Origin: a virus
Taxonomy: Duplodnaviria; Heunggongvirae; Uroviricota; Caudoviricetes
IMG/VR virus record: IMGVR_UViG_2718218305_000006
DNA length: 64,000 bases
Reading direction: 5' to 3' (one strand)
Position 1 is the first letter of the stretch. Each line of letters begins with the position of its first letter. Positions 18,001 through 24,000 of the stretch are shown here, piece after piece. Made by a program: the position numbers.

Positions 18001-21000
18001 TTCAGTTCATGGGCGCGCAGGAGCATTATTCCGGATCGTATGGCAACCGCTATTCTGAACGCAGCCGGGCGCACCTCAGCCTTCATCAGTGGTAAGGCAC
18101 CGGAAATCAAACCCTCGCCCGGCGGCAACACGCCATCGGGTCCGTCTGCAGATACGTCCGTTCGCACAATCTCCCTGCTGCCGGCAGCCGGAGAGGCTGC
18201 TGCGCAGGGCTGGAGCATTAAGGATGGCGGAATTCAGTTGTCAGATGGTGTATTTAAGATCACCAGGCAGAGCAATAAAACCTGGTCCCTGACGCATCCG
18301 GTGGATGACGCAATTACCCTGCTGACACAGGGCGGCAGACTGACCTGTAAGTTCCGCCTGTCAGGCGCACTGACCAACAATCAGTTCGGGCTGGGGATTT
18401 ATCTGTATACGGATGCTCCCGTTCCTGATGGTGTGGCGATGACGGGTACCGGTAATCCGTTCCTGATGTCGTACTTCACTCAGACCACTGACGGCAGAGT
18501 GAATCTGATGCATCACAGGAAAGCCGGAAACACGAAGCTGGGGGAGTTCGGCGATTACGGTAACGACTGGCAGACGCTGGAGCTGGTGTTCACCGCCGGC
18601 AGTGCCACGGTTACTCCGAAACTGAATGGAGTGGCTGGCCCGGCATTCCAGGTTATAAAAGACAGTCTGACACTGGGACTGAATGCGCTGACGCTGACGG
18701 ATGTTACAAAAAATGCAGCGTATGGCGTTGAGATAGAAAGTCTGGTGCTGGAGATAAATGCACCGGCATCATCATAAAAAGTGAGCCAGTCAAATGGAAG
18801 GTATCGTTAAACTCACCGGTAGTGTCAGTGGGTCGTCTGAGACGCCTGCATGAGTTATCAGAGCCATCAGTAGTTAACTGGTGGCTTTTTTATTGTTGTC
18901 AGCTTCCGGATAACGGGAGACGGGGTATGTACCAGATGGAAAAAATCACAACGGGTGTGTCATACACCACGTCAGCGGTGGGGACGGGATACTGGTTACT
19001 GCAGCTGCTGGACAAAGTCTCTCCGTCCCAGTGGGTGGCGATAGGCGTGCTGGGGAGTCTGCTGTTTGGGCTGCTGACATATCTGACGAACCTGTATTTC
19101 AAGATTAAAGAAGACCGGCGTAAGGCGGCGCGGGGAGAGTAAAGTGATGAAGAAAAAATACGAACTGGTTGTTAAAGGGATAAATAATTACCCGGATAAG
19201 ATTACTGTTACTGTGGCACCGGAAATTGGTGGGTATCCGTCACTGTTGTTGCCAGATGTGGCGATTAGTCTTGACCGTACTGAAGGTGCCACGCTGGAGT
19301 TTTACGAAGCTGAGGCGAAAAAGCAGGCGAAGCAGTTTTTCATGGATGTTGCTGCCGGGTTATGTGAAGGGGATGGTCCGTTACCGGAAAAGCGTCCCGT
19401 AATTTTAGAGGCGCAGGATGTGTTGATAACCTACAGAGGAAAACTACCGGGAATAATTACGGGTTCTCTGAAGACTCCACCGCTGGCCTGAAGACTTAAC
19501 ATATCCAGGGATTTGAAATCGATAAACCCTGATAAATATCCATGAACGCAAAAATCAGATACGGCCTGTCGGCTGCCGTTCTGGCGCTGATTGGTGCAGG
19601 GGCGTCTGCGCCTGAAATCCTCGACCAGTTTCTGGATGAAAAGGAAGGTAACCACACCACAGCATACCGTGATGGTGCGGGTATCTGGACCATCTGCCGT
19701 GGAGCCACCCGGGGGGATGGTAAGCCTGTTATTCCTGGCATGAAGCTGTCGAAGGAAAAATGCGACCGGGTTAACGCCATTGAGCGTGATAAGGCGCTGG
19801 CATGGGTGGAGAAAAACATCAGAGTGCCGCTGACCGAACCCCAGAAAGCGGGGATCGCGTCATTCTGTCCGTACAACATTGGCCCCGGTAAGTGTTTCCC
19901 GTCGACGTTTTACAGACGGATTAATGCAGGAGATCGAAAAGGTGCCTGCGAAGCGATTCGCTGGTGGATTAAGGACGGTGGCAGGGACTGCCGTATTCGC
20001 TCAAATAACTGTTACGGTCAGGTATCCCGTCGTGACCAGGAGAGCGCGCTGGCGTGCTGGGGAATCGACAGATAAGCAGAATATTTTGCTGAAAAATGAG
20101 GTTTACTTACATGGACGGATAACACGAAATCCTGCAAATTGGCAAAATGTAAGTGAATAAAGTCAAAGCAGTTGTTTAACACTCAGGCACCGTAATGATG
20201 CCTTTGTCATTTCTGCGCATCTCACGCGCATCTCACAACACAGAACCTTTCAGGATGACCCTTGAGGATACCGGTTTGGCTGTCGGTGCCTTTCTGTGGG
20301 CTGGATTCCTGTGAGACAAGGTTCATCACTAAAAGGAAATAACCGATGAATATGATGGCCGTGCCGTTTCACGGCAACTCTCTTTATGTAGTTAACCATA
20401 ATGGCGAACCATACGTTCCCATGAAACCTGTCGTTGCGGGGATGGGGCTGGCCTGGCAATCACAGTTGGCTAAGTTAAGACAGCGTTTTGCGTCAACTAT
20501 AACGGAAATCGTTATGGTTGCTGAGGATGGGAAACAACGCAATATGGTGTCCATGCCACTTCGAAAACTTGCCGGCTGGCTACAAACCATTAATCCCAAC
20601 AAAGTAAAACCCGAAATCCGCGATATGAACCGCCCCGGTTTTCCTGGAGAGTGTTTTATCTGTGAACTCAGGCTGCCAGATCATCGTTTCCGATGGAAGC
20701 ATAATAAGCTTTTTCTGCTTCTGCCGGAGGAGTATGGCCCAGCCTTCCCAGCAATCGTCGATTGTTATACCAGTCCACCCACGTTAGTGTGGCCAGTTCC
20801 ACTTCTGCACGGTTTTTCCAGCTCTTACGGTGTATTACCTCCGCTTTGTAAAGACCATTGATGCTCTCAGCCATCGCGTTGTCATACGAGTCGCCTGTAC
20901 TCCCTGTTGATGCCAGTAATCCGGCTTCTTTTAGTCGCTCCGTATAGGCCAGTGACACATACTGAGAGCCTTTATCGCTGTGATGGATGGTGCCAGACGG

Positions 21001-24000
21001 ACGACGGGCCCACAACGCCTGCTCCAGCGCATCCAGCACGAATGTCGTTTCCATAGACGATGAGACCCGCCACCCCACGATGTATCCGGCAAACACATCA
21101 ATGATAAACGCCACATAGACGAAGCCCTGCCATGTGCTGACGTAAGTAAAATCAGCCACCCACAGCTGGTCAGGTCGTTCTGCCACGAACTGACGGTTTA
21201 CGCGGTCGCCTGCGGCAACGGCTTTCCGGCTGATGGTCGTACGGACCTTTTTACCCCGGAGAACACCGGCAAGTCCCATAACCGCCATGAGACGTGCCAC
21301 TGTACATCTGGCCACCCTGATTCCTTCCCGTAACAACTGACGCCAGACTTTACGCACACCGTACACCTGATGATTTTCATCGTATACGCGCTGTATCTCT
21401 CTCTTCAGCCAGTCGTCGTGCTGCGCACGGGCACTGCGTTTATCCGGATGATGTCGCTGTTGCTGACAATGGTAATACGTTGACGGGGCAATATGCAGTT
21501 CGCTGCATACCGGTCCGACCCCGTACTGCTCACGCAGCTTATCCAGCAGTGGCATCATTTTTTCCAGAGGCGGTCGAACTCCGCCTTCGCAAAATAAGCG
21601 GAAGCCTGGCGAAGGATATCGTTACTGCGGCGCAGTTCACGATTTTCACGTTCCAGCTCTTTCAGACGCTGACGTTCAGCGCTGGTGAGCCCACCATCAC
21701 CGCCCCCGGTATCCCGCTCATGCTGGCGAACCCAGACACGCAGAGTCTCCGGCGTACAGCCAATCTTTGGGGCAATGGAACAAATTGCCGCCCACTGTGA
21801 GTCATATTCATCCTGACTTTCCAGAACCATACGAATCGCCCGCTGACGGACTTCGGGGGAAAAACGAGTATTTTTAGTCATCCTGTTTACCTCTTTCTCA
21901 GGGAGTTTAGTCTCCAGGATTTCCGGGGCGGTTCAATAAGGTCATCCGGTATCAGGAAGAGTGCGACGATGTTCTTTACGAGTACTGGACGAAGGGTTTT
22001 GTCGTTAATCCCCGTAAAATGAGCGTGATGGAAGAACTCAACCAGGCTTGTGCTGACATGAAACGGGATAAAAACATTGCCAGTGTGTTTGCTACCGGGC
22101 TGAATGAGTGGAAACAGGTTAAAGCCGCGCATGTATCAAAAATCCGTACGCTGGTAAATGAAGCGAATATGCTGATTGATTTTGTCCTGGCTGATACAGG
22201 CAAAGGGAAAATAACAAAGGCGGATTGATGGGGTGGCTAATGATATCAGATAAACTCATAACGCTGGTGAAGAGCCTCTGTGTACTTGTCGGCATTTCAT
22301 TTTTAGTCATGCTGGTTGCCATTTTCTTTTCCACCGCCTGGCGAGTCCTGACGTTATCGGGACTGGTGGGGTGAAAGAGAGATGAACCGTGTTCTGTGTG
22401 TGGTGATTATTGTCCTGGCGGTTGGCTATGGTGCGCTGTGGCTGGCAACAAACCATTACCGTGACAACGCGCTCACCTACAAAGCGCAGCGCGATAAAAA
22501 AGCCAGAGAGCTGGAACAGGCGAATGCCACCATTACTGACATGCAGGTGCGCCAGCGTGATGTTGCTGCGCTCGATGCAAAATACTCGAGGGAGTTAGCC
22601 GATGCGAGAGCTGAAAATGAAACTCTGCGTGCTGATGTTGCCGCTGGTCGTAAGCGCCTGCGGATCAACGCCACCTGCTCCGGTACCGTGCGTGAAGCCA
22701 CCGGCACCTCCGGCGTGGATAATGCAACCGGCCCCCGACTGGCAGACACCGCTGAACGGGATTATTTCATCCTCAGAGAACGGTTGATGACAATGCAGAA
22801 GCAGCTGGAAGGGGCACAGGACTATATCCGCACTCAGTGCCTGAACTAAGTTTTGCTGATGCGCCGTATCGTCGCCGTATTCCTGCATTAACAGAGACCG
22901 CAGCCCGACAGGGAGACTCCTCTGCGAGAGTGTGCGGGGATAATCAAAAACGATACACACCGGGGTTTACCGCGTAAACGGAGCGCGGCGTTCTCCCCTC
23001 ATGGTCGCCCGTCCGGTGCGATGGTGGAAGAAACTGGAATCTGTTCAATAAAAAAACTGCCGTGTTGGAGTCACAGCAGTAATGTACTGATTGGGTAGAA
23101 GATTATTATTGTTATGCTTTATTTTTATTCTATATGGCTGATTATTTCAATTCGGAATTAATACAGCTAATGTCTGTGAGTTTTTATAAATTCAGCAATA
23201 TAAAGAAATAGTTATATGAACAGCCATCGCAGAGCATACTGTGTATCATTCTTTTTTATAGTCAACTGACGGGCATATTTTATGTCTGCTGCCAGCTCCC
23301 GGCGGCAAGATTCAATGACCCACGCAGAAAAATTTTCTGAACCTTTCTGGTCAAGAGCGATGTTAATTTGTTCAATCATCTGGTTTGGAAATCGGATGTT
23401 GCGGGTTGTTGTTCTGCGGGGCCGGTTTTTCGATGACATTTTCTTTCCTCTGGTGACAAGCTATATGGCGAGGATTTTACATGGCTGTGCTTCGTACGTT
23501 ACCGGGCAGAATCAAAACTCTGAACACCCGGCGGATAAATGTCCTGAGGGGGGAACAGCGTCGTGTCAGTGGCAGTGCCCGGGTTTCCCTCAAACGTCGT
23601 ATCTGGCGGAGGGATGCCGGACACTGTTGTCTCTGTAGACGCGTGGTTGACCTTTGTGACAGTGAACTCGATCACCGCATTGCACTTCAGTTCGGTGGTG
23701 GTAATGAGGAGACGAACCTCTGGACCCTCTGTACTGAATGCCATCGCCAGAAGTCAGCGAGTGAAGCGGCGAGTGGTATGCCTGATCCGACGTTGCCTGA
23801 GCTTCCTGATGGCACGCTCAGGGCCGACGGAATCACTGGCCTGTGACCAGACCCGGGGGGGATCATCCGGCGAAAAAAAACGATCGCCCTGGACACCGCG
23901 CCCCCTCTCACGCAGAGAAAAAATTCCCGTTTCAGGGCAGTTAACATGTTAACTGGCTGCCCGGGCATTTTTGCGGTTTTTATCTTTATTATTCAGTTTG

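Follow-up and report, generated by a model that had tools for sequence, protein, structure and literature searches.

A gene for an antirepressor-like protein that has been split by an insertion sequence (IS) raises the question of whether the insertion crippled the prophage around it or struck one that was already crippled. This question is posed by positions 20346-22228 of a 64,000-nt stretch of DNA (hereafter the window) from the IMG/VR virus record IMGVR_UViG_2718218305_000006, which is prophage DNA of E. coli O157:H7 type. Here an open reading frame (ORF) starting at 20346, between the genes for the endolysin R and the spanins Rz/Rz1, is broken after 280 nt by a copy of IS629. A preliminary description of the locus proposed that the insertion inactivates the antirepressor and may have contributed to the loss of prophage induction. 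Our analysis makes it very likely that this was a late and probably neutral IS629 hit, creating a null or near-null ant allele in an Sp12-type prophage that was already without its integrase, and that it was not the cause of the crippling.

The element spans 20626-21935 (1310 bp), and its transposase genes lie on the minus strand, opposite in sense to the late operon of the phage. It ends in imperfect 25-nt terminal inverted repeats, complementary at 22 of 25 positions: the right repeat (IRR, the orfB-distal end) at 20626-20650 and the left repeat (IRL, orfA-proximal) at 21911-21935. These begin with TGAACCGCCCCGG and follow the pattern TGAACCGCCCCGG(TTT/AAA)TCCTGGAGA. They are the sole such pair in the region, and no other IS629 ends were found within the window, where the chance expectation is 0 matches. 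The direct repeat ATA flanks the IS, with the left copy of the target-site duplication at 20623-20625 and the right copy at 21936-21938; a longer duplication is impossible. The 3-bp ATA duplication had been claimed in the preliminary description and fits the 3-4 bp duplications known for IS629 (PMC3271280), but a 3-bp match by itself has a chance of 1/64. The decisive evidence of a real insertion is that deleting 20626-21938 (the IS and one ATA) yields a 570-nt frame of 189 amino acids, free of stop codons, in which all 570/570 nt agree with the genes annotated as ant in 933W, VT2-Sakai, VT1-Sakai, BP-4795 and about 100 other Shiga toxin (Stx) phages. An assembly artefact was considered as well and ruled out by the presence of the same junctions in 71 independently assembled complete genomes.

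Within the element, orfA (21555-21881, minus strand, 108 amino acids) encodes an HTH_Tnp_1 domain and orfB (20668-21558, minus strand, 296 amino acids) encodes HTH_21 and the DDE integrase core rve (9e-28); orfB also fits the IS3-family transposase model NCBIfam NF033516, with 316 bits against a cut-off of 160. The two ORFs overlap, as in the IS3-family layout. A programmed -1 frameshift region with an ALIL pseudoknot (Rfam RF01497) covers 21484-21600 on the same strand, includes an A6 run at 21558-21563, and matches its model over the full length with 121.5 bits (gathering score 50, E = 3e-32). Both reading frames and the frameshift pseudoknot are intact, and this copy is apparently still functional and competent for transposition.

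The earlier identification of the element as a complete IS629 was borne out. Over all 1310 bp it is 100.0% identical to the feature annotated as 'insertion sequence:IS629' in VT2-Sakai (AP000422) and likewise to 'IS1203v' of phage Stx2 II, IS1203v being a second name for IS629. The corresponding copy in E. coli O157:H7 strain 9000 is labelled 'IS3-like element IS1203 family transposase, programmed frameshift' in RefSeq. The further statement that IS629 is characteristic of O157-type E. coli is right about enrichment, since O157:H7 genomes carry IS629-like sequence at 21-28 places each among the records listed, compared with a median of 4 among genomes having any. The element is not specific to O157, however: IS629-related sequence is present in 4290 of 5426 E. 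coli genomes, and the element is therefore not diagnostic. Polymorphism of IS629 sites in O157 prophages has been studied extensively, and 62% of IS629 copies reside in prophages (PMC3271280). A close known parallel to the window copy is that of Sp5/VT2-Sakai (AP000422, 24900-26209), which shares 100.0% identity over 1310 bp, the orientation relative to the late operon, a 3-bp duplication and a lambdoid prophage host. The two differ in their sites: the Sp5 copy precedes the lysis genes and breaks no coding gene (PMC2669165), whereas the window copy lies inside ant of an Sp12-type prophage.

The location between R and Rz given in the preliminary description also proved correct, and all of the neighbouring lysis genes are intact and on the plus strand. 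Endolysin R occupies 19542-20075 (Phage_lysozyme, 1.5e-24), the i-spanin gene Rz occupies 22382-22849 (Phage_lysis, 4.9e-50), and the o-spanin gene Rz1 is embedded in the latter at 22602-22787 (Rz1, 1.7e-21). The interrupted gene itself is divided into a 5' fragment at 20346-20625 (plus strand), comprising codons 1-93 and the first base of codon 94, and a 3' fragment at 21939-22228 (plus strand), comprising the remainder of codon 94 through the stop. As it stands, the 5' fragment runs into the IS to form a 171-amino-acid chimeric ORF that ends at 20861, while the 3' fragment contains a 69-amino-acid internal ORF that starts at 22019. RefSeq annotates the two pieces in strain 9000 as 'phage antirepressor N-terminal domain-containing protein; incomplete; missing C-terminus' and 'incomplete; missing N-terminus'. 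The locus is thus already on record as a split pseudogene, two fragments around an IS1203/IS629 transposase, and the event is of a known kind.

Removing the IS and searching the restored frame, as the preliminary description had suggested, recovered a coherent member of an antirepressor family. The restored protein matches Pfam P22_AR_N over residues 5-113 (1.4e-45), ORF11CD3 over residues 122-164 (5.5e-6), and PHROG 524, 'anti-repressor Ant' (phrog_524), over residues 1-189 (2.4e-112). With its flanks, the restored locus (2988 nt) aligns in one ungapped piece to EDL933 (100%, 2988/2988) and to Sakai Sp12 (99.90%, 2985/2988). Because the break falls inside P22_AR_N, with the 5' fragment matching only to profile position 92 of 115 and the 3' fragment keeping the end of that domain and the detached C-terminal helical domain ORF11CD3, the gene product can safely be presumed inactive and the allele null or nearly so. 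No second copy of ant was found within the window. To this extent the claim that the insertion inactivates the antirepressor holds for the loss of the product; the name given to that product calls for more caution.

For the 189-amino-acid protein, 'antirepressor' is a homology label only. Compared with the P22-type Ant of Lederbergvirus, it is 50% identical over 127 residues of the N-terminal domain and has no similarity past residue 126. Genuine Lederbergvirus Ant has 300 amino acids, combines P22_AR_N with P22_AR_C (7e-31), and is encoded after the Arc gene in immI. By domain comparison, the protein studied here lacks P22_AR_C and has ORF11CD3 in its place, and its gene sits in the endolysin-spanin interval of the late/lysis operon, not in an immI-type location under Arc/Mnt control. 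It is therefore a member of the P22_AR_N-containing family and not of the P22 Ant type, since both the C-terminal domain and the genomic context disagree with the latter. What it does share, over its full length and in its two-domain architecture, is the make-up of the PHROG 524 / 'phage antirepressor N-terminal domain-containing protein' family. Among 2580 homologues, PF10547 and PF10549 occur together in all of the best 120, and the architecture of P22_AR_N plus ORF11CD3 in about 188 amino acids recurs with 60-94% identity across Enterobacterales prophages. A Serratia homologue (gene at 4001-4567) lies between a lysozyme gene and a DUF2570 gene taken as the i-spanin, and a Photorhabdus homologue (gene likewise at 4001-4567) directly follows an Rz-type gene, ahead of HNH-terminase. 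The gene thus keeps to the late/lysis module in other genera too, where the prophage backbones are unrelated; P22 ant, by contrast, lies in immI.

Functional clues from other sources were few. A sequence search for relatives of solved structure returned nothing meaningful, no NCBIfam model matches the protein, and its AlphaFold2 model (predicted local distance difference test score, pLDDT, 73.6) had no significant fold match, the best being a weak APSES-like match (E = 0.15) and generic helical-hairpin matches. Literature searches on IS629 and antirepressors, on the R-Rz ant of Stx phages and on the dissection of P22 Ant domains found no experiment on the lysis-cassette gene, and a gene-deletion study of Sp5 makes no mention of antirepressor, ant or lysis. 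One Stx-phage gene that does bear the name ant, for its similarity to P22 Ant, is that of Phi24B (Fogg et al. 2011, PMC3064807). The effect of knocking it out was followed with a reporter expressed from the late promoter pR' under norfloxacin induction, and the authors proposed that it promotes efficient induction (PMC3064807). However, the likeness of Phi24B Ant to P22 Ant lies mainly in its C-terminal 104 residues (82% identity), the part missing from the protein in the window (PMC3064807). Phi24B Ant is a different gene, and its phenotype is therefore not transferable to the one considered here.

Two further small ORFs touch this interval. A conserved hydrophobic ORF of 49 amino acids lies between ant and Rz (22225-22374) and is annotated in RefSeq as a hypothetical protein. 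The internal 69-amino-acid ORF of ant (22019-22228, from M121) forms a PHROG of its own (16011), and it may be the 'hypothetical protein' that several phage records list beside ant under one match.

The history of the surrounding prophage bears most directly on what the insertion could have done. Sequence comparison identifies it as the counterpart of Sp12, a lambdoid prophage adjoining ynfA in E. coli O157:H7. Over 41.9 kb the window shares 99.988% identity with strain 9000, and its first 4596 bp are 100% identical both to the end of the EDL933 prophage by ynfA-ynfB-speG-ynfC and to the end of 'prophage Sp12' of Sakai. This left arm, with its integrase pseudogene, xis and exonuclease, and the chromosomal junction are both of the Sakai Sp12 type. 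The integrase remnant (67-749, minus strand) contains no intact ORF and matches both the intR pseudogene of Sakai Sp12 (ECs_5736) and the EDL933 copy at 100% identity; in EDL933 and strain 9000 it is annotated as 'frameshifted; incomplete'. In Sakai (ECs_2258) and in the orthologous prophage of EDL933, the 570-nt ant gene is intact. Since these two strains have an empty IS site and yet share the identical integrase pseudogene, loss of the integrase preceded the IS insertion. In Sakai, moreover, both the integrase and the repressor of Sp12 are disrupted, and no circularisation, replication or packaging was observed (Asadulghani et al., PMC2669165).

The prophage has further structural lesions that do not stem from the IS. 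The tail gene L (37548-37910) breaks off at residue 121 of 232, and a deletion after about 37910 has removed K and I. The portal gene (28570-31145) changes frame near its 3' end, at about 31041-31065, relative to the intact Sakai gene ECs_2248, and RefSeq calls J frameshifted in strain 9000.

The interrupted allele was found, at 100% identity, in 71 of 5426 complete E. coli genomes. The best 25 of these 71 carriers are all O157 or O157:H7 wherever a serotype is given, and the carriers include strain 9000 (UK cattle), Z-series cattle and human isolates, FDAARGOS_293, and the Argentine strains 146N4 and Balcarce 24.2. The paper describing the Argentine strains assigns 146N4 to clade 6 and is inconsistent on Balcarce 24.2 (PMC8553066). 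Sakai, EDL933, 86-24 and others have the empty site; the insertion is therefore derived, and it is restricted to a sublineage. It probably has a single origin.

Taken together, these observations favour the following course of events. A transposition-competent IS629 of the IS3 family entered codon 94 of the ant-like gene for a 189-amino-acid protein, by the usual cut-and-paste or copy-out-paste-in transposition, in the late operon of an Sp12-type prophage by ynfA, between endolysin R and Rz/Rz1, duplicating the target ATA. It cut the protein short inside P22_AR_N and parted it from ORF11CD3, which presumably left a null or near-null allele. The event is derived and limited to a sublineage, came when the prophage integrase was already gone, and was most likely a selectively neutral hit in decaying DNA. 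Because the integrase had already been lost, the IS cannot have been what immobilised the prophage.

Several points weigh against this account and have to be set beside it. Both the neutrality of the insertion and its single origin are features that we infer. The early regions of the prophage in the window and of Sp12 in Sakai and EDL933 are mosaic and different, such that orthology is strict only for the left end and for the stretch from the lysis to the head genes. Nothing in the window matches the CI and Q proteins of Sakai; its early region differs from that of Sakai Sp12 and instead holds paa, a short helix-turn-helix (HTH) repressor and a DUF1133/Q-like protein. That repressor lacks Peptidase_S24, and short non-cleavable repressors in other phages depend on antirepressors for induction, so that a regulatory role for Ant is conceivable and should not be dismissed outright. 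Finally, IS629 has struck an ant allele at least once more. The Stx2 phage VT2phi_272 (HQ424691.1, 3001-4310) carries an independent insertion after nt 10, in codon 4, with a TGA duplication; the depositors annotated the start of ant at the IS junction. The IS there is 99.9% identical to IS629, and the ant allele is about 90% identical. The insertion shares with ours the element, the gene family, the orientation relative to the late operon and the position between R and Rz, and differs in its codon, in its duplicated target and in residing in an Stx2 podovirus rather than an Sp12-type prophage. Such a second hit could hint at non-random targeting or at selection, and is the sole sign of either.

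Two observations on the early region may be added here. The immunity region includes a 135-amino-acid HTH repressor gene without a Peptidase_S24 domain (6105-6512, minus strand) and a divergent P22_Cro-type gene (6589-6816, plus strand). The adhesin gene paa (AcfC family) lies beside a frameshifted fimbrial pseudogene, followed by hokD (window about 10445-11203 and 9751-10284, by correspondence with strain 9000), and this cargo is absent from the Sp12 early region of Sakai and EDL933, in line with the mosaic nature of the prophage.

A neutral hit was weighed against the view that the main effect of the IS is polarity, that is, that it blocks late transcription or translation of Rz/Rz1 and of the packaging and head genes. 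The IS does add 1.3 kb in the middle of a long late transcript, and the stretch of about 1.1 kb beyond 20861 carries no ORF oriented with late transcription and is presumably untranslated. However, no intrinsic-terminator-like site was found on the plus strand inside the IS, and Q-modified RNA polymerase generally reads through terminators in lambdoid late transcription. The identical IS629 of Sp5/VT2-Sakai is oriented alike within the late operon of a prophage that still yields transmissible phage (PMC2669165). From the missing terminator and the Sp5 precedent, strong polarity on Rz/Rz1 and the head genes appears unlikely, and we give polarity as the main effect little credence.

Slightly less credible still is the proposal of the preliminary description that Ant lifts repression of the prophage, which would have lost its inducibility in part through the IS629 insertion. 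In its favour, the joined protein belongs to families annotated as antirepressors and resembles the N-terminal domain of P22-type Ant, and a repressor without a self-cleavage domain makes an antirepressor-dependent switch conceivable. Lemire, Figueroa-Bossi and Bossi reportedly described in 2011 LexA-controlled, trans-acting antirepressors of Gifsy-type prophages with non-cleavable repressors. These systems are like the prophage in the window in having a repressor that does not cleave itself, but they differ from it in their LexA control: neither a LexA box nor a sigma-70-like promoter on the ant strand was found in the 270-bp gap upstream of the window gene (20076-20345). Because ant belongs to the late operon, follows an intact gene for a Q-type antiterminator and has no such signals of its own, its product should be made only after derepression. 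The protein also lacks the P22_AR_C domain. Above all, Sakai and EDL933 have an intact ant and the same integrase pseudogene, the Sp12 of Sakai is non-excisable all the same (PMC2669165), and the lesions in tail genes L, K and I and in the portal gene owe nothing to the IS. The shared integrase pseudogene largely refutes this explanation.

A related and more speculative idea, to which we attach a similarly small probability, is that the Ant-like protein of the lysis module is a late regulator acting in trans, such as an antirepressor able to relieve the repression of co-resident prophages with non-cleavable repressors after one phage has committed to lysis, and that IS629 knock-outs of its gene were selected in poly-lysogenic O157. 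If true, the recurrent knock-outs, of which two independent ones are in hand, would reflect selection to damp cross-induction in such strains. The least probable explanation, that ant is a preferred IS629 target or that its loss was selected, for instance because it halts a late trans-acting antirepressor from cross-inducing co-resident prophages, can point to the second same-orientation insertion in VT2phi_272 and to a strong conservation of the gene in the lysis modules of many Enterobacterales prophages that implies a normal function, but, given hundreds of IS629 copies, 62% of them in prophages (PMC3271280), two hits even in one small gene could be chance, the two target sequences have no evident common motif, no experiment on the protein was found in the literature, and among 258 phage records with ant, in which at least 80% of its length lies in one place, the codon-4 insertion of VT2phi_272 is the only interruption seen.

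The remainder of the window shows further traces of mobile DNA. By 99.4% identity to strain 9000, about 45367-49825 holds nleG7, which encodes a type III effector, followed by ISEc8 (IS66 family: tnpA, tnpB and transposase) inside a remnant of an IS256-family transposase; this site is the junction of two tandem prophages. The second of them, also lambdoid, occupies about 50900-64000, and its int-xis-exo region is 88.7% identical to that of the first and in the same orientation. The strain 9000 annotation marks its integrase and RecE genes as truncated. Over this part the window departs from strain 9000, with blocks of 99.4% and 98.7% identity and a rearrangement, so that it comes from another, related strain.

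The interpretation of a late, probably neutral IS629 hit makes the interrupted allele an ordinary strain-level polymorphism of little importance by itself. It is useful as a lineage marker that separates its carriers from Sakai, EDL933 and 86-24, in keeping with the well-documented IS629 insertion polymorphisms in O157 prophages that serve in strain typing. The case also shows how IS hits build up in prophages that have already been immobilised.

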